Origin: an uncultured Candidatus Saccharibacteria bacterium
Lineage (GTDB): Bacteria; Patescibacteriota; Doudnabacteria; UBA920
Reading direction: 5' to 3'
Length of the DNA stretch: 64,000 bases
NCBI GenBank assembly: GCA_964505635.1
Contig: CAZDIP010000001.1
Coordinates: 40,174 to 104,173, forward strand
Shown one piece after another: positions 14,077 to 57,347 of the stretch. The position numbers and the translations under genes were made by a program. Under the pieces are notes generated by a model, which saw only the letters and a program-made list of their open reading frames with translations, was not told the origin of the DNA and did not search any database. Position 1 is the stretch's first letter; each line of letters starts with the position of its first letter.

Positions 14077-15306
14077 ATGAAAGATAATCAGATAAAAATT
14101 AAAAATAAGGGAAGTGTGCTAATGGCGCTTTCCGGCGGCATAGATAGCGCGGTTTCAGCGTATCTACTAATTAAGCAGGGATATAAAGTACAAGCCGCGT
14201 TTATGAAGAACTGGAGCAGCCAGGAAGGCCTTTTGAAAAATGAATGCCCGTGGCTTTTAGACCGCAGGGAGGCTTTGCGCGTGGCTGCGTTTTTAAACAT
14301 CCCGCTTCATACATTGGATTTTGAAAAGCAGTACCAAAGTACGGTAATGAAATATTTTTTTAACGAATACAAAAAAGGCCGTACGCCAAACCCGGATGTC
14401 ATGTGCAATAAAGAAATCAAATTTAAGCTTTTATATAACTGGGCAATGAAAAACGGGTTTGATTATTTGGCTACGGGACACTACGCGAGAATTAGTAGAA
14501 AGAAGCAAGTAGTAAGTAGCAAGGGAAGGCAAAAAAAATCCATACTACATGCTACTAACTACACGCTACAGCGAAGCCGGGATGAATTCAAAGACCAAAC
14601 TTACTTCATCTATAACATAAAAACAGAGCAGCTGCCGCATGTGCTTTTTCCGATTGGGGGAAAGAAAAAAGAACAGGTGCGCAAAATGGCCAGGAAAATC
14701 GGTCTGCCTAACGCGGAACGCAAAGAAAGCATGGGTCTGTGCTTTGTTGGGAAAATTAGGCTGAAGGATTTTTTAGAGCAAAGGCTAAAAGAAAAAAAGG
14801 GGGAGATAATCTTTTTACCCCCTGCTTCGTCTTTGCGAGGAGTGCGGCCGACGAAGCAATCTTCCCCTAAAGAACAGATTGCTTCGGATGCACTCGCAAT
14901 GACGAAATCAATTATAGGACACCATTACGGCTTACATAACTACACCATTGGCCAGCGTCAGGGTATAAAAGTTGGCGGAAGCGGCCCGTATTATGTAGTA
15001 AGCAAGGATTTAAAAAGCAATACTTTGTTTGTAACTAATAATCCTGAAGACGAGCGTTTGTTTGTAAAAGAAGTACAGATCCATTCTGTAAACTGGATTG
15101 ATTCTAGCTACAAGCTAAAAGCTATAAGCTGTAAGCTTGTCGGAAGGTATAGGCACCAGGGGGAATTGGTTCCGCTAGGCATTTCAAAAATAGACAACAA
15201 GTATTATCGCGTAATTTTTAGAAATCCACAGAAAGCTGTTGCCTCGGGACAAAGTTTGGTATTATATAAAGGTAAGGAATGTGTCGGCGGAGGGGTAATT
15301 GCTTAG
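14077..15306 (+). CDS. mnmA: tRNA-specific 2-thiouridylase MnmA, carrying in-frame insertions
   Basis: PP-loop ALSGGIDSAVSAYLL and the conserved C-terminal domain. Extra segments ISRKKQVVSSKGRQKKSILHATNY and PPASSLRGVRPTKQSSPKEQIASDALAMTK coincide with palindromic DNA. Confidence 0.85.
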   Translation: MKDNQIKIKNKGSVLMALSGGIDSAVSAYLLIKQGYKVQAAFMKNWSSQEGLLKNECPWLLDRREALRVAAFLNIPLHTLDFEKQYQSTVMKYFFNEYKKGRTPNPDVMCNKEIKFKLLYNWAMKNGFDYLATGHYARISRKKQVVSSKGRQKKSILHATNYTLQRSRDEFKDQTYFIYNIKTEQLPHVLFPIGGKKKEQVRKMARKIGLPNAERKESMGLCFVGKIRLKDFLEQRLKEKKGEIIFLPPASSLRGVRPTKQSSPKEQIASDALAMTKSIIGHHYGLHNYTIGQRQGIKVGGSGPYYVVSKDLKSNTLFVTNNPEDERLFVKEVQIHSVNWIDSSYKLKAISCKLVGRYRHQGELVPLGISKIDNKYYRVIFRNPQKAVASGQSLVLYKGKECVGGGVIA

Positions 15307-36320: not shown

Positions 36321-37610
36321 ATGGCAAAAGAATTAATTGATCTAAATAAAACCATAAACTTAGGGTTTTGGCAGAAGTTGCCTAAACCGGTTTTTTGCCT
36401 TGCGCCTATGGAAGAGGTAACAGACGTGGTGTTTAGGGAAATGTTTGCGAGGTATAGTGGCGGTAGAGAAAAAAATGTTCTTCGACCTAACGGAGAAGAT
36501 ATTTTTTCTGATGAAAATAAAAATATTAGATTCTCCACAAGAGCCTGTCCTGAGCCTGCCGAAGGGTCGAATATTAACATTTTAAATAACTTTGTCATGT
36601 TTACGGAATTTATAAACGTAGACGGAATACTACATCCCACGGGTTTTGAGCGTTTAAAAATTGACTTGGAATATACAGAAAACCAAAGGCCAATTGTCGT
36701 ACAAATTTGGGGCACTGACCCGGAAAAGTTTTTTAAGGCCGCGCAGTTAATGGTTAAAATGGGTTTTGATGGCATAGATATAAATATGGGTTGTCCGCAG
36801 GACAAAGAAATTGGCATTGGCGCGTGCGCAGCTTTAATACGCAACCCAAAATTAGCATCGCAAATTATTGAAGCAACCATAAAGGGTGCCCGCCTGCAGT
36901 CGCCTTCGGCTCCAGCAAATGGCGGGCAGGCCGGCAGTTTGCCGGTTTCCGTTAAAACCCGTACCGGATATTCTAAACCTGAAACCGAAGCATGGATTGC
37001 TCATTTGCTTAAGCATGGCTTAGCCGCAATAACTTTACACGCCAGGACAAAACTGGAAAAAAGTAAAGTGCCGGCGCAGTGGGAAGAAGTTAAAAAAGCG
37101 GTTGATGTCAGAAATGCTATGCAATCGCAAACCTTAATTATTGGCAATGGCGATGTAAAAAACAGAGAGGAAGGTTTAAAAAGAATAGAGGAGACCGGCT
37201 GCGACGGGGTTATGATAGCGCGTGGAGCTTTTGGGCACCCATGGATATTTAGAACTATTGAGAGGGAAAACCCAAAAGAGGGTTTTTCCCTCTCAACGTC
37301 CCAGACTTCGTCTGGGACTGCTCTCCCTTTCCAAAGTTTTAATAGCCCCGAAGTAAATTCGACGGCTATTAAGTCAACAAAAAGTTATCAACCCTCAGCA
37401 AAAGAACGCCTTATGGTAATGCTTGAGCATGCCAGGCTGTTTGACGCAAAATTAGGCAAAGAAAAATCTTTTGTGATTATGCGAAAACATTTTAAATCGT
37501 ATTTAAGCGGGTTTGACGGCGCGGCTGAGCTTAGGGCAAAGCTTCTAGAAACAAAAAACCTTCAGGAAACAGAAGGTATTTTGGCAGAGTTTTTAAAAAG
37601 TTTTAGTTAG
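36321..37610 (+). CDS. tRNA-dihydrouridine synthase (Dus family), carrying in-frame low-complexity insertions
   Basis: CLAPMEEVTD..., IDINMGCPQDK and GCDGVMIARGAFGHPWIF. Extra segments ARLQSPSAPANGGQAGSLP and ENPKEGFSLSTSQTSSGTALPFQSF correspond to DNA hairpins. Confidence 0.8.
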   Translation: MAKELIDLNKTINLGFWQKLPKPVFCLAPMEEVTDVVFREMFARYSGGREKNVLRPNGEDIFSDENKNIRFSTRACPEPAEGSNINILNNFVMFTEFINVDGILHPTGFERLKIDLEYTENQRPIVVQIWGTDPEKFFKAAQLMVKMGFDGIDINMGCPQDKEIGIGACAALIRNPKLASQIIEATIKGARLQSPSAPANGGQAGSLPVSVKTRTGYSKPETEAWIAHLLKHGLAAITLHARTKLEKSKVPAQWEEVKKAVDVRNAMQSQTLIIGNGDVKNREEGLKRIEETGCDGVMIARGAFGHPWIFRTIERENPKEGFSLSTSQTSSGTALPFQSFNSPEVNSTAIKSTKSYQPSAKERLMVMLEHARLFDAKLGKEKSFVIMRKHFKSYLSGFDGAAELRAKLLETKNLQETEGILAEFLKSFS

Positions 37611-43572: not shown

Positions 43573-44625
43573 TTATGGTCTTCCTTTATCCCGTTTATTT
43601 TTTAAATAATCAACCGCAAAAAGTGCAAAGGGTAACTCTTTGGTGTTTAGGTGCAAGAGGCTAGATCGACTGCCCTCCGCAACAAAATCGAAAGGAATAA
43701 AATCTGCGGAGCCGGGTTCTTTTACAGCCTGTTTGCGAAGCCATTCCATAGTTTTTTCAAATACTTCCTTGGTCAATCCGCCTTCCCCAGTCCTTCTAAT
43801 AAGCTCAGCTGCTATTAGCGAGGTTTTTAAGAAGAATAGATTACGTTTGTATTCCTGACCTTTTCTAATATAATCGGGCTGCATTCTCATTCGTTTTTCA
43901 GACTCAAATAGTGAGTTTACATTCCTATCCGGGTGATGGGTTCTGGATTTTTCTAGATCAAAACCCCAGCTCGCTAATTTATGTGGATAATAATTTGCGG
44001 TTGCAGTAATCAATCCTTGAAACTTTGAATCATTGGCAATGATGCCTCTACGGCTTCTGACTTTTGTTAAAGTGTTTATTACTGCGGCCGGACCATGTAA
44101 AAATTTAAAAGCATGTTCTTTGTATACTTTTTGTAAATCGCCGCTAGAGGCCGCATCCTCATAAATGTTCGGTAATGGTCGCGTGCTATCTCTGCCAAGG
44201 TTGGGACTGGCTTTTGTATCTTTTATTTTTCTGGTTCTTTGTAAGAAACTTTTTTCTCTTCCCGAAAAAATCTTGGCTACATCTTCACTACTCGGTACTT
44301 CCAAACAAGAAGTCCAGTCACCTTTATAAAACCAATCTTCAATTAACCGAATAGCCGTGTTAATAAACCTCTGATCTTCTTTAGTTTCTATATCTACCTC
44401 GCCAAAGCTTTCGTATCTAAAAAAATATTTTATCCTATCCCAAATGTGGGCTTCTAAAGCATTAATATCCAAATTATCTTTTGGAAACGCCTTGACTACG
44501 TTGGCTAGAGAGGTTGCATAATTTCGAATAAAACTGCGCAAATCCAATTTTTCTGGCTCCCCTTTAGACTTAGTGTCGTTTTCAAGAAGATTTTGGTAAG
44601 CTTTGAAAATTTCAGGTCTTTTCAT
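43573..44625 (-). CDS. Hypothetical protein
   Basis: 350 aa ORF. No motif recognised. Confidence 0.5.
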   Translation of the reverse strand: MKRPEIFKAYQNLLENDTKSKGEPEKLDLRSFIRNYATSLANVVKAFPKDNLDINALEAHIWDRIKYFFRYESFGEVDIETKEDQRFINTAIRLIEDWFYKGDWTSCLEVPSSEDVAKIFSGREKSFLQRTRKIKDTKASPNLGRDSTRPLPNIYEDAASSGDLQKVYKEHAFKFLHGPAAVINTLTKVRSRRGIIANDSKFQGLITATANYYPHKLASWGFDLEKSRTHHPDRNVNSLFESEKRMRMQPDYIRKGQEYKRNLFFLKTSLIAAELIRRTGEGGLTKEVFEKTMEWLRKQAVKEPGSADFIPFDFVAEGSRSSLLHLNTKELPFALFAVDYLKNKRDKGRP

Positions 44626-44872
44626 ATGTTTTTATAAGTATAGCGTATAGTTTGAATTTCTGAAAATTTTGGCAAAAGTAGAATACCAACAGAGATTTAA
44701 ATGATTTTTGCGGCAGTTTCATCCCACAGGGTATGATGAAAAAAGTCGGGGAATCTAAGTAGTAAAGCCTGAAGGGTCTACTACGGGATGCAGTTAAACC
44801 CCAATCGGGCTTCTCAGCTCCGGTGTCATTACTTAAACAAAACACTTCCACCATTAAGGTGAAAGTTTTTTT

Positions 44873-44948
44873 GGTAGCGCTACCCCGCACAACTTTCCGC
44901 CAGTTGGCGGAAAGTTGTGCGGGGCGCAGCGGGGAATTCCCCGAACCC
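44873..44948 (-). other. Partial duplicate of the tRNA-Glu 3' end interrupted by a perfect 19 bp-stem palindrome (candidate att remnant)
   Basis: Plus-strand TGGTAGCGCTAC + [CCCCGCACAACTTTCCGCC-AGTT-GGCGGAAAGTTGTGCGGGG] + GGGGAATTCCCCGAACCC, compared with the tRNA-Glu plus-strand TGGTAGCGCTACGGGGAATCGAACCCCGA at 46774. Confidence 0.4.
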
Positions 44949-44989
44949 AAAACCATGAAAAAGACCCGACGCAAGGTCGGGTACTTTTC

Positions 44990-45022
44990 ATGGTAGACCA
45001 AGTCGAGACAGGTGGAAAACTT
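44990..45022. repeat. Left copy of a perfect 33 bp inverted repeat (ATGGTAGACCAAGTCGAGACAGGTGGAAAACTT)
   Basis: Exact reverse complement of 48617-48649. Verified base by base over 29 nt, with about 2 nt more on each side. Confidence 0.8.
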
Positions 45023-45089
45023 TTCTCGCATTGGTAAAAGAGATTTATAATTTGTTTGTTACCAAGCCTATTGTCCCTAATGCTACTTT

Positions 45090-46773: not shown

Positions 46774-46848
46774 TGGTAGCGCTACGGGGAATCGAACCCC
46801 GATTTGGTGGATGAGAACCACCTGTCCTAACCATTAGACGATAGCGCC
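46774..46848 (-). tRNA. tRNA-Glu (anticodon CTC)
   Basis: rc: GGCGCTA-TC-GTCTAATGGTTAGGACA-GGTGG-TTCTCAT-CCACC-AAAT-CGGGGTTCGATTCCCCG-TAGCGCT-A-CCA. Confidence 0.85.
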
Positions 46849-47298: not shown

Positions 47299-48609
47299 AT
47301 GGAAAATTTATTGAGCCGGCTTGGCTCTTTTATTTTGCTTGAGAAACAGGCAAAAAACGTTAATAAGCAAATTAAACGGAATGCGAAAAAGAATAAAATC
47401 GCCAATCCGCGCTTTTTTAACTTGGAAGAACTTAAGACATTACCAGAAAAAATATTAAATAAAAGTTTTACATTTGATTTACTCCGTGCCAAGACTATAC
47501 CAAAGCCTGGCAAAACCAAACGAAGACCGCTCTCAATACCAACGCCGAGAGACAGGGTCGTTTATGGTGTATTAAACAGACTGCTAAAACCTGCTCTTAT
47601 TGGGTATTTAAATCAAGCGCCTTCTTATGGAATATTAAAAAAACGCGGCGTGCATGGAGCGTATACTGAGATAAAAAAGCATTTAGCAGATGGTTGTCAT
47701 TATGTTCTAAAAGTTGATATCCAAGATTTTTTTAATAAAATTGACAAGGGAATTTTATCATTTATTTTATTTCCAAGAATTGCCAATACCGCTGACTCCT
47801 CAATTAACCATTTAATTAGGGACTGCTTAAAATTTGAATATAAGTCTTTACCGGAAGAGGAGGAGTTAAGAAAACTTTTTCCTACAAAATATTATGGCAT
47901 CGCACAAGGCAACGCTTTATCTCCACTATTTGCTGATGTCTACCTAAAGCTATTTGACTCGGAACTTAAACGTTCCGGTTTTAAAGTTGTTAGGTATGTT
48001 GATGATTTAATTGTTTTTACAAAAACAAAAAAGGAACTTTATCCAGCTTACATAAAAATTAAAAACTGTCTTAAGCCTCTAAAGCTAACTATAGATAAAT
48101 ACAATACGGGTAAATGTATAGCAACTGATATTACTCGGCATGTTGAATTTTTAGGCGTAGACATTGGACCGGGACAGATTTTAACAATACAGGGAAATAG
48201 GGTGCAAGCACTTAGGAGTAAGCTCTCGGCTTTATTAGATAGATTCTATAACAAGCGCTTTGTTCATATTTCCTATAAAGAAAAAATGGACGGTATTAAT
48301 GGACTGATTGAAGGTTGGGCTGGCGCGTATAGTATGTGTGACCGTGCTTATTTAGCAGATTTGTATGAGAAGCTAAATAAAATGATAAATAGTAATATTG
48401 ACAGCCTTTTAAATCGCGGGCTTATTGTCCAAAAAGAGCACGATTATCTATTTAATAATGTAAGACGTTTCCATTTACCTACTGGCAAAAAACGAAAGAT
48501 TACGAGGAAGAAAAAATCTCGCTATAGTTACGGAGTCAAGCCATCAAAAGGCCAATTGAAGATTTGGAGTGGCGGTATTTATAATTTAAGAGTAAATGTC
48601 CTTTACTAG
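47299..48609 (+). CDS. Reverse transcriptase (retron/group-II-like RT domain with a thumb; no endonuclease domain)
   Basis: RT motifs: RRPLSIPTPRDRVVYGVL (1/2), SYGILKKRGVHGAY (2a), YVLKVDIQDFFNKI (A), GIAQGNALSPLFADVYL (B'), RYVDDLIVF (C) and EFLGVDI (7), then a GLIEGWAGAYS thumb motif. 436 aa. Confidence 0.85.
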   Translation: MENLLSRLGSFILLEKQAKNVNKQIKRNAKKNKIANPRFFNLEELKTLPEKILNKSFTFDLLRAKTIPKPGKTKRRPLSIPTPRDRVVYGVLNRLLKPALIGYLNQAPSYGILKKRGVHGAYTEIKKHLADGCHYVLKVDIQDFFNKIDKGILSFILFPRIANTADSSINHLIRDCLKFEYKSLPEEEELRKLFPTKYYGIAQGNALSPLFADVYLKLFDSELKRSGFKVVRYVDDLIVFTKTKKELYPAYIKIKNCLKPLKLTIDKYNTGKCIATDITRHVEFLGVDIGPGQILTIQGNRVQALRSKLSALLDRFYNKRFVHISYKEKMDGINGLIEGWAGAYSMCDRAYLADLYEKLNKMINSNIDSLLNRGLIVQKEHDYLFNNVRRFHLPTGKKRKITRKKKSRYSYGVKPSKGQLKIWSGGIYNLRVNVLY

Positions 48610-48616
48610 AGCCAAA

Positions 48617-48649
48617 TAAGTTTTCCACCTGTCTCGACTTGGTCTACCA
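48617..48649. repeat. Right copy of the perfect 33 bp inverted repeat, 8 nt after the RT stop and before the RT terminator
   Basis: AAGTTTTCCACCTGTCTCGACTTGGTCTACCAT is the rc of 44990-45022. Confidence 0.8.
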
Positions 48650-48669
48650 TCATTTAGATAATCCCTTCT

Positions 48670-52946: not shown

Positions 52947-53579
52947 CTAAGGGTTTGCTTCTAGACCGCTGTTAAACTTTTCGGCTGGCCCGTTTTGAAG
53001 CTTTGTGTCAACTTTTTGTGGATTTTCTTCGGAAGAAGCTAAACTAGGCGAGGCAGCCGGCAATTTTATTTGAGAAACCAGTTTTTCAAATTCCGGCAAA
53101 TCTTTAAACCCGTTTAATCCCAGATGCTGCAAAAATTCCGTCGTTGTCCTGTACAAGGCGCTTCTTTGGTCGTCCGGATTGTGTATTTTTTCTATCAACC
53201 CCCTCATAAGCAGGGCTCGCAGGCTGTATTGGGAATTAACTCCCCTTATGGCCTCAATTTCCGCTTTGGAAATTGGCTGTCTGTAAGTTATGATTGCTAA
53301 AACTTCAACTGTGGCATCGGTTAGCTTTTCCCTCAACTCCGAGTTTAAAAAGTTTTTTACGAGCGAGGAATTTTCGCTGTTGGTGGCAAATTGGTATTCA
53401 CCCTGGTTATTTAAAAGAACAACCCCTGAGTTTTTACGAGAATTCTCGAGATTTTCCAAAGCCTGTAAAATTTCTGTTTCGGGCCGTTCTAAAATTTTAA
53501 CAAGTTCCTTAAGCTTGAGCGGCTTTTCGGAAACAAATAAAATACTTTCCAGGGCTGAGATTAAGTTTGATAGTTCCAT
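52947..53579 (-). CDS. scpB: Segregation and condensation protein B
   Basis: LESILFVSEKPLKLKELVKIL..., a tandem wHTH pattern. Confidence 0.8.
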   Translation of the reverse strand: MELSNLISALESILFVSEKPLKLKELVKILERPETEILQALENLENSRKNSGVVLLNNQGEYQFATNSENSSLVKNFLNSELREKLTDATVEVLAIITYRQPISKAEIEAIRGVNSQYSLRALLMRGLIEKIHNPDDQRSALYRTTTEFLQHLGLNGFKDLPEFEKLVSQIKLPAASPSLASSEENPQKVDTKLQNGPAEKFNSGLEANP

Positions 53580-53797
53580 AATAAAAATAATCCTAAGCTT
53601 ATTAAAATTAAACTATAAAAAATTATAGTGGTTTTTCTGCCCAATGCCGGCCTATAGCCTTTGGCCGAAGGCGGCAGCTTAATAAAGCCTTTTTCAACCA
53701 AAAAACCCAAAGTGCGTTCATATATAAAATCTACAGCTAAACTCCCGTACAGAAAACCTACTATAATAAAAGTCAATCCAATTGAAAATTTGCTCAT
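53561..53797 (-). CDS. Small membrane protein (78 aa) between scpA and scpB
   Basis: 2 TM helices. Confidence 0.35.
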   Translation of the reverse strand: MSKFSIGLTFIIVGFLYGSLAVDFIYERTLGFLVEKGFIKLPPSAKGYRPALGRKTTIIFYSLILISLGLFLLWNYQT

Positions 53798-53798
53798 T

Positions 53799-54512
53799 TT
53801 AAGCTCCTTGATCCGGATGCTTTATGATTGTGACGTCGGCAAACAAAGCTTCCTGGTTGGCGACAAAAATTTTCTGCTTGATTAATTCCAGCAAGGCTAA
53901 AAAGGTTACAATAACTTCAGTTTTATTTTTCGCGCTTTGTAAAAGTTCGTTTAAGCTTGTTTGGACGCGGCCTGACAAGTGCTCCCTTAAATGGTCAATT
54001 TTTTCTTGGATAGAAATAGCTTCTTTAACTTTGGCTTTGGGCAAATTATCTAATTCTTTTAACCCAAATAAAACTTTTAAAATAGCCGCGTGGATCTCCT
54101 TGGCGCTTACTGAATTGTCGGGAAAAAAATTAATACGCTGTTCAAAAGTTAATGCTCGCGTGAAGCTTTGGCTTCTTTTAGCATCCAAAACTTTTAAATA
54201 TTTAGAAACTTCCTTAAATTGCCTGTATAAAAGCAACATGCTTTCTAGGTCCTGAGCCGAATCTTCCTCTTCTTTTTCCAGTTCCAAAGTGGGTAAAATA
54301 GCCTTAGATTTAATAACCAAAAGTTTGGCGGCAATGGCTAAATAATCAGCCAGCACCGTCGGGTCAATTTTTTCAAGCTCCTTTAAATATTTTAGAAATT
54401 GTTCGGTAACCTCGGCCAGGGCGATTTGGGTAATATCTAAATGCCGCTGTTCTATTAAAGAAAGCAGTAAATCAAGCGGTCCTTCGAACTGTGAGATTTT
54501 GACTTTTTGCAT
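53799..54512 (-). CDS. scpA: Segregation and condensation protein A
   Basis: FEGPLDLLLSLIEQRHLDITQIALAEVTEQFL. Confidence 0.8.
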   Translation of the reverse strand: MQKVKISQFEGPLDLLLSLIEQRHLDITQIALAEVTEQFLKYLKELEKIDPTVLADYLAIAAKLLVIKSKAILPTLELEKEEEDSAQDLESMLLLYRQFKEVSKYLKVLDAKRSQSFTRALTFEQRINFFPDNSVSAKEIHAAILKVLFGLKELDNLPKAKVKEAISIQEKIDHLREHLSGRVQTSLNELLQSAKNKTEVIVTFLALLELIKQKIFVANQEALFADVTIIKHPDQGA

Positions 54513-54618
54513 TAAGCGAGCTAATGAAGCTTATAGGACTAATAATGCAGATATGACCTATATGTCATAAAAACAAATAGCATGTATAAGACCTGTAAGA
54601 CTTATTAGGTTCATAAAG

Positions 54619-55230
54619 TTACTTTTTTGCTTTACTAAAAGCCCCTTTAATCGGTTTTACCAACTTTTCAAAATCTTTAACAGCCAATTCCACGCTGTGG
54701 GTATAGGTTCCGGCGGAGGCTATTATTTTCTTCGCCTTGCTCATTCCTTTGTCCATCAGCGTCTGTAAATTGTAATGAATCCCGAATGGGTGAAGCAGGC
54801 CGACTTTGGTTTTTAGGTGTTTAGTTATGTCTTTTTCACTGGCCATGCTGACTTTTTTTGCTTTTAAAGCTTTTTTAATACCGTTGAAATCAACGTATTT
54901 GGCAGCCGGCAGGACAATTAGCGCAAAATAGTTATTTTTCGTCATTGCGAGTGCAGCCGAAGCAATCTTTTTCCGCGGTGAGATTGTTTTGTCGGATGCG
55001 CTCCTCGCAATGACAGCAGACGGGGAACCCTCCACTTTGACTAATACCACTTTCGCGATTTCGGAAAGTTTTTTCTTGGTTGTCGCGCCTACGTCATGCG
55101 CTGTAAAAACCACTTTATGCTCCAAGACTTTGTATTTAACCTTAGCCTGGTCTAACAATTTGGTTATCTGGTTTGAAAGGTGTTTTATTTGCTTTTTTGT
55201 TTTGTTATTAAATTTATGTTTCTTTTTCAT
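54619..55230 (-). CDS. YbaK/ProX-type aminoacyl-tRNA deacylase domain protein with an in-frame palindromic insertion
   Basis: KVLEH..VFTA.D..., IAKVVLVK, ALIVLPAAKYVDFNGIKK and GLLHPFG. The insertion is SAVIARSASDKTISPRKKIASAALAMTK. Confidence 0.6.
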   Translation of the reverse strand: MKKKHKFNNKTKKQIKHLSNQITKLLDQAKVKYKVLEHKVVFTAHDVGATTKKKLSEIAKVVLVKVEGSPSAVIARSASDKTISPRKKIASAALAMTKNNYFALIVLPAAKYVDFNGIKKALKAKKVSMASEKDITKHLKTKVGLLHPFGIHYNLQTLMDKGMSKAKKIIASAGTYTHSVELAVKDFEKLVKPIKGAFSKAKK

Positions 55231-55433
55231 AACATTTTGAGTTAAGAAGCTTTTTTTCCGGCTAGCATGTCTTCCAGCTGTTTTATATCTTTTTCCAACC
55301 CTTCAATTATAGCCGGGTTTTCTGGGTCGCTCCCCGGATTTGATCGCAAATCTTCTATTTGCTTTTTGTGGCCTGATATGGCTTTTTCTAATTCTTCAAT
55401 AGAAGCATGTTTCCAAGCCTCGGGATTAATTTG

Positions 55434-57347
55434 CTATTTATTTTTTTCCACAGGTAGATTCAACTTAATATGCAACTCCTTTAGTTGTTTTTCTTCTACA
55501 GTGCCTGGGGCTGACATCATTACGTCTTCGGCCGAACCGTTTTTAGGAAAAGCGATTACTTCACGGATGTTTGGCTCGTTTTCAAGAAGCATTAAAAGCC
55601 TGTCTATGCCAGGAGCAAAACCACCATGTGGGGGAGCGCCATATTCAAATGCGCGAATCATAGCTCCAAATTTTTCATCTACAGTTTCTTTACTGTATCC
55701 GACTAATTCAAATGCTTTATACATTATTTCCGGATTATAGTTTCTAATTGCCCCACTGGAGAGCTCTAGCCCATTAGCAATAATGTCGTATTGGTAGGCG
55801 CGAATGGTAAGGGGGTCCTGGTTGTTTAAAGCATCTAGCCCACCTTGCGGCATTGAAAATGGATTATGCATAAAGTCGAGTTTTCCTTCTTTGTTAAGCT
55901 CATACATAGGAAAGTCGGTAATCCACGCCCAGGCTACAATAGTAGGATCCTTAAGTCCAAATATGTCGCCCATTTTGTCTCTTAGCTTTCCTAATACTTT
56001 GTTTACGAGCGTTTTATCATCCGCGCCAAAGAAAATAATGTCACCGGATTGGGCTTTAAGTTTGTCAATTAGCGCTTTCTTTTCTGCGTCAGAAAATTTG
56101 TTTACTATTGTGCCTGATAAATCACTAATATCGACTGTTTCTAAAGAATGGCCGCTTGATGACATTCCTTTTCCAGCAAATAAGTGCTCTTTTTTTCCAC
56201 ATATTACATATGGTAATCCACCAGCACCTTCTTTTTTTACCATTTCTGTTAATTCATCAATCTGGCTTCGGGTAAGTTTGGCGCCTCCTTGCACGCAAAT
56301 GGCTTTTACAGAGCCGCTATTTTCTATAGCATTGTAAAAAATTTTAAATTCGGTTCCTCTAAAAATATCTGTTAAATCCACCAGCTTCATTTCAAACCTT
56401 AAGTCTGGTCTGTCAGAACCATATTCCTCTAAAGCCTGTAAATAGGGGATTCGTGGAAATGGTTTTTGCATGCATTTTTTGCCTGCAAATTTTTCTGTTA
56501 GTTCTATAAATAAAGGTTCTAGTTCCTGGAAAACTGTTTCGTCACGGTCTGCAAAACTAATTTCAAGGTCTAACTGATAAAATTCGCCAGGAGATCTGTC
56601 GGCTCTCGGGTCTTCGTCACGGAAACATGGGGCTATTTGAAAATATTTTGGAACTCCGCCAACCATTAATAATTGTTTAAATTGCTGGGGAGCTTGTGGA
56701 AGCGCGTAAAATTTACCCGGATGTAAACGGGACGGCACTAAAAAGTCGCGAGCGCCTTCAGGCGAGCTGGAAGTTAGAATTGGAGTGTTTATTTCTATAA
56801 ATCCTTTGTCATCCATCCAGTCGCGGATGTATTTTATCATTTTATGCCTCTTAAGAAGCATGCGCTGCATTTTTTCACGTCGTAAATCTAAGAAACGGTA
56901 TTTAAGGCGAATATCCTCGCCAATGCTTGCTTCTTCACCGTGGCCGTGGGCTATGGGAAAGGGAAGGGGCTTGGAAGAGTTTAAAAGTTGTAAGTTGTAA
57001 GTTGTAAGTTCTACGTTGCCGGTGGGTAAGTTAGGATTTTTTGTGGAATCGCTTCGTTCAACAACTTGGCCGGTGACCGTAATTACAAATTCATCCCTGC
57101 ATTTATCGGCAGCGCTAAAAGCCTCAGCCTGATCGGGGTGGATTGCTAGTTGGACTATGCCGGTGTGGTCGCGGAGGTCAATAAAAATCACGCCGCCATG
57201 GTCGCGTCGTGAATTAACCCAGCCGGACAAACTGACGGTTTGACCAATGCTTTGGGGTGTATGGATTGCTAGTGTTCTTTGCATATGTTTGATGCTGTAT
57301 TTCCCGGTCAAATAATATAAATTTGACGGGATAAATCCGATAGACAA
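55434..57347 (-). CDS. aspS: Aspartate--tRNA ligase
   Basis: OB-fold N-terminus, class II motifs FRDE, GGG.R and the QLDLE-type core. 637 aa. Confidence 0.9.

Follow-up and report, generated by a model that had tools for sequence, protein, structure and literature searches.

The palindromic element described here lies within a ybaK-like deacylase gene in a 64,000-nucleotide stretch of Doudnabacteria DNA (contig CAZDIP010000001.1 of assembly GCA_964505635.1), which is called the window and is numbered from its first letter. A sister copy of the element lies inside mnmA in the same window. The features of the two loci are as follows, orthologues without an insert at the site being termed empty and those with an insert filled.

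54619-55230, minus strand: host gene, encoding a 203-residue aminoacyl-tRNA trans-editing deacylase of the YbaK/ProX type (from the list of open reading frames, ORFs, and Pfam)
54928-55035, minus strand: inserted block as compared to empty orthologues, residues 66-101, VEGSPSA-VIARSASDKTISPRKKIASAALAMT-KNNY (from protein and DNA alignments)
55015-55035, minus strand: 5' linker, codons 66-72 (VEGSPSA), joining the conserved strand to the palindrome
55004-55014, minus strand: outer left arm GTCATTGCGAG, a family terminus; the T before it gives a TGTC tag
54991-55003, minus strand: long-arm variable module GAGCGCATCCGAC, exceeding the module of the opposite arm by 6 nt
54981-54990, minus strand: inner left stem AAAACAATCT, two substitutions away from the family consensus GAAGCAATCT
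54969-54980, minus strand: terminal loop CACCGCGGAAAA, which varies across the family
54959-54968, minus strand: inner right stem AGATTGCTTC
54952-54958, minus strand: short-arm module GGCTGCA
54941-54951, minus strand: outer right arm CTCGCAATGAC, a family terminus; the G after it gives CGTC on the other strand
54928-54939, minus strand: 3' linker, codons 98-101 (KNNY)
14829-14903, plus strand: sister copy of 75 nt inside mnmA (14077-15306, plus strand), read as SSLRGVRPTKQSSPKEQIASDALAMT and splitting the Pfam PRC-barrel domain

The sequence at 54941-55014 reads GTCATTGCGAGTGCAGCCGAAGCAATCTTTTTCCGCGGTGAGATTGTTTTGTCGGATGCGCTCCTCGCAATGAC and constitutes an imperfect palindrome of 74 nt, which extends to 54940-55015 when the C and A contributed by the CGTC and TGTC tags on its flanks are included. 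An earlier note, made from the sequence alone, had placed the element at 54941-55016; its sequence and start are correct, while the end was set 1-2 nt too far, the palindrome ending at 55014. The imperfect hairpin predicted in that note is borne out by folding, as the 85-nt stretch bearing the element forms a single long imperfect hairpin on each strand, with z-scores against shuffled sequences of -3.9 (gene strand) and -4.6 (plus strand) for RNA, and of -3.3 and -5.2 for DNA. The gene reads through the palindrome as VIARSASDKTISPRKKIASAALAMT (residues 73-97), in agreement with the claim that the element is translated in frame within the ORF, and two of the three frames through the arms are free of stop codons.

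Within the window, blastn aligns the ybaK and mnmA copies over 75 nt with 80% identity and an E value of 1.5e-13. The earlier note had called the ybaK element a second copy of the mnmA element and had made this depend on the significance of their alignment; the pair scores 64 bits as compared to a maximum of 25.4 bits among 200 shuffled queries, and is significant. A profile hidden Markov model built from 124 family members finds just these two copies in the window. The terminal 11-mer GTCATTGCGAG, with at most one mismatch, occurs four times in the window against 0.35 expected, a number reached by none of 100 shuffles. Aligned in gene sense the copies score 45, and in the opposite orientation 24, because their arms differ by 6 nt and the long arm comes first in both genes. 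The co-orientation of the element with both genes, also noted earlier, is hence real in two of two copies, but two copies lend it no statistical weight. The ybaK copy ends in TGTC and CGTC, and the mnmA copy in CGTC at both ends. The two genes read the left arm one base apart, but their frames coincide in the right arm because the loops of the two copies differ by one base. With the left arm read in different frames from DNA that is 80% identical, the two genes share DNA and not a peptide. It is the DNA, in the form of the boxes and the hairpin-forming potential, that is conserved in this element, and not the peptide.

The host ORF matches Pfam PF04073 (tRNA_edit, the aminoacyl-tRNA editing domain) with an E value of 1.7e-19, the match being limited to residues 86-190 of the protein (profile positions 18-123). 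The nearest homologues bear the names YbaK/EbsC and come from Candidatus Doudnabacteria, the names of the best matches being the basis on which the sequence was assigned to this group, and most homologues are unnamed metagenome proteins. Aspartyl-tRNA synthetase, the YbaK-like deacylase, ScpA, a small ORF and ScpB follow one another at 52947-57347 of the window as in loci L201-L204; since this gene order is kept between the window and related contigs, the ybaK genes compared here are true orthologues. The tight turn VKAD-KDFVLIVL is found in 71 of the 120 best homologues, where the window protein reads VKVEGSPSA...KNNYFALIVL, so that the four residues ADKD, a tight β-turn in the empty orthologues, have become 36 residues in the window protein. 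Homologues leave a gap of 32 residues with aligned sequence on either side, and the tRNA_edit match resumes only at residue 86, as expected from the earlier claim that the element sits between conserved YbaK blocks. The Legionella-type homologue P0302, also a longer protein, was rejected as a comparable case, its extra length being an N-terminal extension and not a loop insert.

The position of the insert in the fold was elucidated by structure modelling, a check that the earlier note had proposed. A first AlphaFold model built from close homologues alone was discarded (predicted local distance difference test score, pLDDT, of 57), the Legionella-type subfamily was then added to the alignment, and the model from this deeper alignment has a mean pLDDT of 83.8 and a predicted template-modelling (pTM) score of 0.76. 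It resembles the solved YbaK/ProX structures 3op6, 2dxa, 1dbu/1dbx and 1wdv with target TM-scores of 0.80-0.89. Strands 58-67 and 100-108 have pLDDT values above 90, and residues 68-99 between them form a low-confidence loop at the tip of a β-hairpin, with pLDDT values of 46-55 and without secondary structure. When the family profile was aligned to structures 3op6, 2dxa, 1dbu and 1vki, the insert site fell on the two-residue turn of KMDGR-LAMVV. The invariant lysine K60, whose equivalent is required for YbaK deacylation, stands at the start of the first strand (58-67), and the insert is at the opposite end of that strand. The insert is predicted from the model to be a flexible, disordered excursion from the tip of a surface β-hairpin, the sort of site that tolerates inserts.

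An alignment of the best 120 YbaK homologues, counted by hand, has an insert at this turn in 49 sequences, and the inserts are of several kinds. Among the Doudnabacteria orthologues listed, about a third have a palindromic insert there. The studied family is represented by the subtypes VIARSASDEAIS..., VIASPEALRGARQS..., VIARSEATKQS... and VIAKERERLKQS..., and a sister family with ATTCTGAG-type ends by VILSERSESK...; short unrelated hairpins also occur, for example TCAAAGGACAGTCCTT-CACAAA-AAGGACTGTCCTTTGA in L125. Most inserts are flanked by the residues V-x-G...Y, whereas ADLPRVAGGKAGKS and ADPASPRLRRASPE keep the original AD...K(D/S) flanks. The presence of two insert kinds with the original flanks beside those with V-x-G...Y implies at least three independent events at the YbaK turn. 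Independent assemblies of several origins have the same insert, placed at the same codon. In seven sequenced filled alleles the extra lengths are 39, 63, 90, 93, 96, 102 and 105 nt; all are multiples of three despite their differences, which supports translation. The stop-free frames and the frame-keeping lengths together indicate that the element is transcribed and translated with the gene, adding a flexible loop of ~32 residues.

A core-only tree and allele comparisons, covering about 420 nt in a small sample, show filled and empty alleles to be interleaved. Filled L325 shares 87% of its DNA sequence with empty L326, as against 76% with other filled alleles, and filled L202 shares 88% with empty L203. 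Identity to the empty relative is 92-100% away from the site and drops to 67-78% in the ~40 nt on either side of it, and in this part L202 is nearer to filled L123 than to its empty relative. Such a mosaic around the site fits an exchange of alleles by recombination, or a faster local change after insertion.

Conservation within the filled alleles was estimated from five orthologous type-A copies, giving ten pairs, with the following identities.

Palindrome: 72-95%, mean 84% (89-95% within a subtype)
Linkers among filled alleles: 52-58%
Core codon positions 1 and 2: 90%
Core codon position 3 (synonymous sites): 51%

The palindrome, its third codon positions included, is thus conserved to the level of replacement sites. 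Alteration within the element has also been recorded. In L329 (101-682) and L330 (101-730), a GGCCAG...CTGGCC hairpin with a 6-bp stem has taken the position of the short-arm module TGCA; the replacement, GGCCAGACAAAG(C/A)CCTGGCC, lengthens the gene by 12 nt in frame and the protein by four residues, changing ASAALAMT to ASARQSPGLAMT. This side hairpin shows module turnover in place.

Other parts of the ybaK gene also carry palindromic inserts in some orthologues. L123 and L124 have an additional, palindrome-rich insert of 48 nt (TCATCCGCCAAAGGCGGATCC...CACCTTTGGCGGA) about 90 nt further downstream than the main site; it is in frame, separates the KKAL codons from the KAKK codons and is missing from all other sequenced orthologues. 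In L325 (236-865; protein P0003), codons about 10-22 of a lysine-rich N-terminal tail hold the palindrome CCACGC-GGA-GCGTGG followed by CCGGCTCCGCCGG, which is not present in L326.

For MnmA, 51 of 121 sequences (the window protein and 120 homologues) have at least six extra residues at the site of the window copy, and further hot spots for inserts lie at the N-terminus and near residues 149, 344 and 350. The lengths of the MnmA homologues P0121-P0240 vary from 347 to 472 residues through inserts at five or more hot spots, many of these inserts being palindrome-derived peptides of several families, such as PPLTPPSKGGESAVVPPLTKG, LLGRRGGSADVLGGSAEPPSFLRRST and ESSRAERGISS...SLAMT.

The distribution of the element was followed by a pattern scan for exact termini in one genome per species, which requires intact termini and gave 124 elements at no fewer than 120 loci; the taxa named from the family scans are neither complete nor proportional. 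The family layout is (C)GTCATTGCGAG...GAAGCAATC-loop-GATTGCTTC...CTCGCAATGAC(G). Among the matches listed, the family is present in more than 10 phyla. Its hosts include Bradyrhizobium and other Alphaproteobacteria, Sphingomonadales, Legionellales, Coxiellaceae, Gammaproteobacteria, Burkholderiales (Betaproteobacteria), Deltaproteobacteria and Rickettsiales, and further Bacteroidota, Chloroflexota, Planctomycetota, Cyanobacteria, Zixibacteria, Margulisiibacteriota and Patescibacteria including Berkelbacteria. Complete isolate genomes are among the carriers. The pattern is also found on at least 120 IMG/VR viral contigs, some with three copies, and on plasmids of Novosphingobium, Methylosinus, Methylocystis, Calothrix and Legionella; one Novosphingobium replicon has the element in at least 40 places.

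Two boxes, near-identical and of 11 and 9 nt, are common to all 124 elements, while the modules and the loop differ. Position -1 is C in 88 and T in 28 of the 124, and position +1 is G in 94, which gives the CGTC tag. The flanks of many elements extend the palindrome, e.g. in L002, L068, L091, L092 and L111. The arms differ in length by 0 nt in 30 elements and by 6 nt in 32, the latter being the difference in both window copies. Each arm has a module of its own, in one of three forms: GCGNAGC (with any N), a hairpin between GA and GAC, or a GC-rich hairpin with G(T/C)GGCAAT after it. The modules are self-complementary; their stems, of 3-8 bp, come in at least 20 versions, and the two modules within a single element are often unlike. 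As each arm has its own, often unlike, module, the evolutionary unit is the half-element, and the palindrome an inverted pair of such units. The sequence d(GCGNAGC) is a classic and very stable DNA mini-hairpin. The energy model used does not capture this stability, and isolated half-units of the window copies gave z-scores of -1.6 to +0.5.

Most copies of the family are intergenic. In-frame copies are found in GMP synthase GuaA (L033) and UvrA (L038), and in L046 a copy lies upstream of the transglycosylase domain of a Patescibacteria penicillin-binding protein. Rfam at the gathering threshold detected no family in the window or in 17 element-bearing loci, and on the element itself, with E up to 10, gave chance-level matches only; the terminal 11-mer, other strings of the element and the encoded peptides retrieved nothing relevant from searchable paper text. 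Just upstream of the uvrA start, L038 also bears a member of the sister family whose ends are of the ATTCTGAG type, reading CHSEQSEES...SFTAFRMT; this is the family that occupies the YbaK turn of P0027, P0028 and P0032. In an IMG/VR contig (L284, 3052-3440), three copies of the element, 156 nt apart, alternate with another palindromic repeat, CATCCTTCGAGGCTCGCTGCGCTCGC...CAGGATGAG, in a composite tandem array.

Among known systems, the CGTC-tagged repetitive extragenic palindromic (REP) repeats, families CGTC-1 to CGTC-4, described by Di Nocera, De Gregorio and Rocco (2013, BMC Genomics 14:522, PMC3733652) are closest in layout. These repeats have an unpaired CGTC (variants TGTC and CCTC) beside the stem, a stem that starts with AT and a CCA tail; the units have an 8-9-bp stem and a 4-5-nt loop and are mostly arranged as head-to-head dimers, often heterodimers, some being nested in other palindromes (PMC3733652). 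They are known from five phyla, without hosts in the candidate phyla radiation, Chloroflexota or Planctomycetota, and although most copies are intergenic, in-frame copies are reported in uvrA, dnaE2 and aminoacyl-tRNA synthetases (PMC3733652). The studied element resembles them in several respects. A CGTC or TGTC tag stands outside the stem in both window copies; the stem is of the AT...AT form, with ATTGC...GCAAT in three of the four window units and ACAAT in the fourth, the left unit of ybaK; and all copies are head-to-head inverted pairs, often of unlike units. The nesting of palindrome in palindrome, the mostly intergenic location and in-frame copies in genes such as uvrA are likewise shared. 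CGTC-3 appears, from its peptide VIAGLDPAIH, to have the frame CGTC-ATTGC...GCAAT-CCA in common with the studied element.

The element differs from these repeats in its units, which have a 5-bp stem (ATTGC/GCAAT), a non-complementary GAG/GAA step and a variable inner module. The 3' tail reads CCA in the CGTC consensus, GCAATCCAG in proteobacterial members of the studied family, and CAATCTC, CAATCTT and CAATCTG in the window copies. The peptides in the supplement of PMC3733652 (VIPAKAGI, SFPRKRES, VIAGLDPAIH and VIPWLDHGI) imply stems unlike those of the studied element. Judged from these sequence features, the element is treated as a member of the CGTC-REP superfamily in the broad sense, possibly of an undescribed type or of CGTC-2. 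In a comparison with CGTC-2 through Novosphingobium aromaticivorans, the plasmid copy proved to be a heterodimer, whereas only homodimers are reported from there (PMC3733652).

Rickettsia palindromic elements (RPE) lie in frame in genes that still encode functional proteins, to which they add a short surface segment; CGTC-1 equals Neisseria dRS3 and RPE-6, and CGTC-4 equals RPE-4 (PMC3733652). The ybaK element is like an RPE in being inserted in frame into an intact ORF at a position tolerated by the fold, with orthologues both with and without the insert. The Rickettsia peptides VIPAKAGI, SFPRKRES and VIPWLDHGI are, however, unlike VIARS..., SLRG... and ...LAMT of the present family, and for the families compared, RPE-6/CGTC-1 and RPE-4/CGTC-4, the R. 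conorii peptides differ throughout, so that the element belongs to neither. Moreover, the host is a Patescibacteria lineage and the studied family spans phyla, whereas RPE are confined to one genus.

REPINs with their REP-associated tyrosine transposases (RAYT), and the IS200/IS605 insertion sequences, share with the element short hairpins, often in inverted pairs, and a conserved tetranucleotide adjoining the hairpin; the tag is nevertheless CGTC in the studied family and GTAG in REPIN/RAYT. These systems offer the best model at hand for the cutting and moving of such repeats. Miniature inverted-repeat transposable elements (e.g. Correia/NEMIS, RUP, ERIC and Nezha) are similarly small, non-coding repeats with inverted ends that form hairpins and can lie in genes. 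The studied element differs from them in having no target-site duplication and in being palindromic as a whole and not just at its termini. No parent insertion sequence with matching ends is known for it, no search for a longer element having been made. An intein or a self-splicing intron was rejected, as the insert has 25-36 residues, the frame is kept in seven of seven sequenced alleles and there is no Rfam intron match.

Taken together, these observations suggest that the element is probably a CGTC-REP type of palindromic repeat, short and non-autonomous, whose translation yields a disordered loop that is tolerated at this permissive turn. It is best described as two CGTC-tagged, REP-like units of the 'ATTGCGAG / GAAGCAAT' type joined head to head as a dimer. 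By analogy with REP/RAYT and IS200/IS605, the repeat may spread or be renewed through a DNA-level process acting on single-stranded hairpins, in which the tag and the hairpin would be recognised on single-stranded DNA. Such a process may prefer existing palindromes or loops as targets, a preference that would also explain the nesting and the module swaps. Survival of the repeat in genes would then be filtered by which protein loops accept inserts.

Several observations weigh against this reading. The mobility of the element is argued by analogy. No transposase is linked to CGTC repeats or flanked by them (PMC3733652), and no RAYT or HUH transposase turned up or was linked to the element here, the 69 window ORFs being not fully annotated. 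A target-site duplication is not evident, as no direct repeat was found at the 124 family junctions or in two filled-versus-empty comparisons; the 11-12 nt of the empty site are replaced and not split, so that there is no clean empty-versus-filled junction. The simple hairpin unit of 8-9 bp is not found, isolated half-units folding no better than shuffles (z about 0). Two copies in 64 kb are a small sample for a repeat family in this genome. Finally, the conservation of the palindrome is unlike that of inert junk and indicates that the sequence is either under selection or still being renewed.

A bolder view, which is considered rather unlikely, takes up such renewal. The ATTGCGAG/GAAGCAAT palindrome would here be an active, structure-seeking DNA module of more than 10 phyla, viruses and plasmids, renewed in essential genes of the candidate phyla radiation, where it would repeatedly enter the same hairpin or loop targets and swap modules. 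It would be kept by homing or gene conversion via a possibly widely conserved machinery, and not by selection on the host protein.

The conservation of the palindrome could alternatively reflect a hairpin kept for a cis-acting role in the DNA or the transcript of its gene, i.e. a domesticated regulatory structure and not a passenger. It could slow the ribosome, protect the transcript from RNase or expose it, or serve as a site for protein binding or supercoiling. The palindrome nucleotides, third codon positions included, are indeed conserved far above the neutral sites of the same genes, a strong hairpin is predicted on both strands, and all three window genes with palindromic inserts work on tRNA; REPs have also been proposed to act as RNA elements (PMC3733652). 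However, most orthologues have no insert at all, other lineages have unrelated palindromes at the same turn, and elsewhere the family is mostly intergenic or in unrelated genes. In the ybaK copy itself, two substitutions weaken the inner stem. This explanation is held to be unlikely.

The mosaic of alleles raises the possibility, regarded as distinctly unlikely, that the filled allele is long-lived and has been passed among related Doudnabacteria by homologous recombination in a homing-like manner, with no new insertions, the palindrome appearing conserved because the allele is young in each background. This would explain why filled alleles are closest overall to empty ones (L325/L326, 87%; L202/L203, 88%), why identity to the empty relative falls near the site, with L202 closer there to filled L123, and why the V-x-G...Y flanking residues are common to most filled alleles. 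The linkers are nevertheless as diverged as synonymous sites, which argues against a recent transfer of the whole block, and no nuclease that could drive homing was identified; the tree, moreover, is based on about 420 nt from a small sample. Allele exchange thus explains the mosaic and not the diverged linkers.

Selection for a protein feature is very unlikely to account for the insert. The loop would in that case be a new interaction surface on YbaK and MnmA, e.g. for tRNA or a partner protein, in line with its lysine-rich composition on tRNA-handling enzymes and with the conserved peptide among the type-A orthologues. The left arm is, however, read in another frame in mnmA and gives a different peptide, at this site other orthologues encode unrelated peptides or are empty, and the loop is predicted to be disordered. 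Conservation also reaches synonymous positions, which protein-level selection does not explain.

It is highly improbable that the mature enzyme lacks the segment through an intron-like removal from the transcript or an intein-like removal from the protein. A stable stem would bring the ends of the element together, and genomes of the candidate phyla radiation are known for insertions in their rRNA genes. Splicing, however, needs neither the frame nor the absence of stops that every sequenced filled allele keeps despite the differences in length; 25-36 residues are far too short for an intein, and neither splicing residues nor a match to an Rfam ribozyme family was found. A chance similarity or an assembly artefact, for which nothing speaks beyond the general risk of metagenome assemblies, has a negligible probability in view of the E value of 1.5e-13 to the second copy, the same insert at the same codon in independent assemblies and the presence of the family in complete isolate genomes.

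On its own, the ybaK copy provides a clean case, from a reduced genome of the candidate phyla radiation, of a palindromic repeat that has become coding sequence in a host other than Rickettsia, and it shows a tolerated insert site at the tip of the β-hairpin after the strand with the conserved lysine of YbaK. Selfish repeats of this sort are already known, but the number of hits on this one site is unusual; the Doudnabacteria YbaK turn and several MnmA loops have been filled repeatedly by different palindromes. One family is present in very distant phyla, on viral contigs and on plasmids. The related CGTC repeats have no known mobilising enzyme. The many filled and empty pairs at known codons offer a natural test bed for the origin, movement and persistence of REP-like repeats. 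For annotation, such inserts split Pfam domains, inflate protein lengths and create recurrent 'hypothetical' peptides (VIARSEATKQS, DCFASLAMT).

Palindromes of other kinds are also present in the window. The ORF at 36321-37610 (plus strand), a tRNA-dihydrouridine synthase (Pfam Dus, E 4.9e-58), carries two of them in frame at 37258-37323, namely TTGAGAGGGAAAACCC-AAAAGAG-GGTTTTTCCCTCTCAA and, directly after it, CGTCCCAGAC-TTC-GTCTGGGAC, which are jointly read as ERENPKEGFSLSTSQTSSG. The three window genes found with palindromic inserts (ybaK, mnmA and the Dus gene) all act on tRNA. A perfect palindrome with 20-bp arms at 44883-44924 is followed after 28 nt by a second one with 19-bp arms (44952-44994); the two lie inside a 139-codon ORF (44612-45031, minus strand) without a Pfam match, and their sequence is unrelated to the studied element. 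An inverted repeat of 58 nt, 86% complementary (44990-45047 and 48593-48650), encloses ~3.5 kb including the tRNA gene at 46777-46848, and could either mark an invertible or mobile segment or represent two diverged gene starts.

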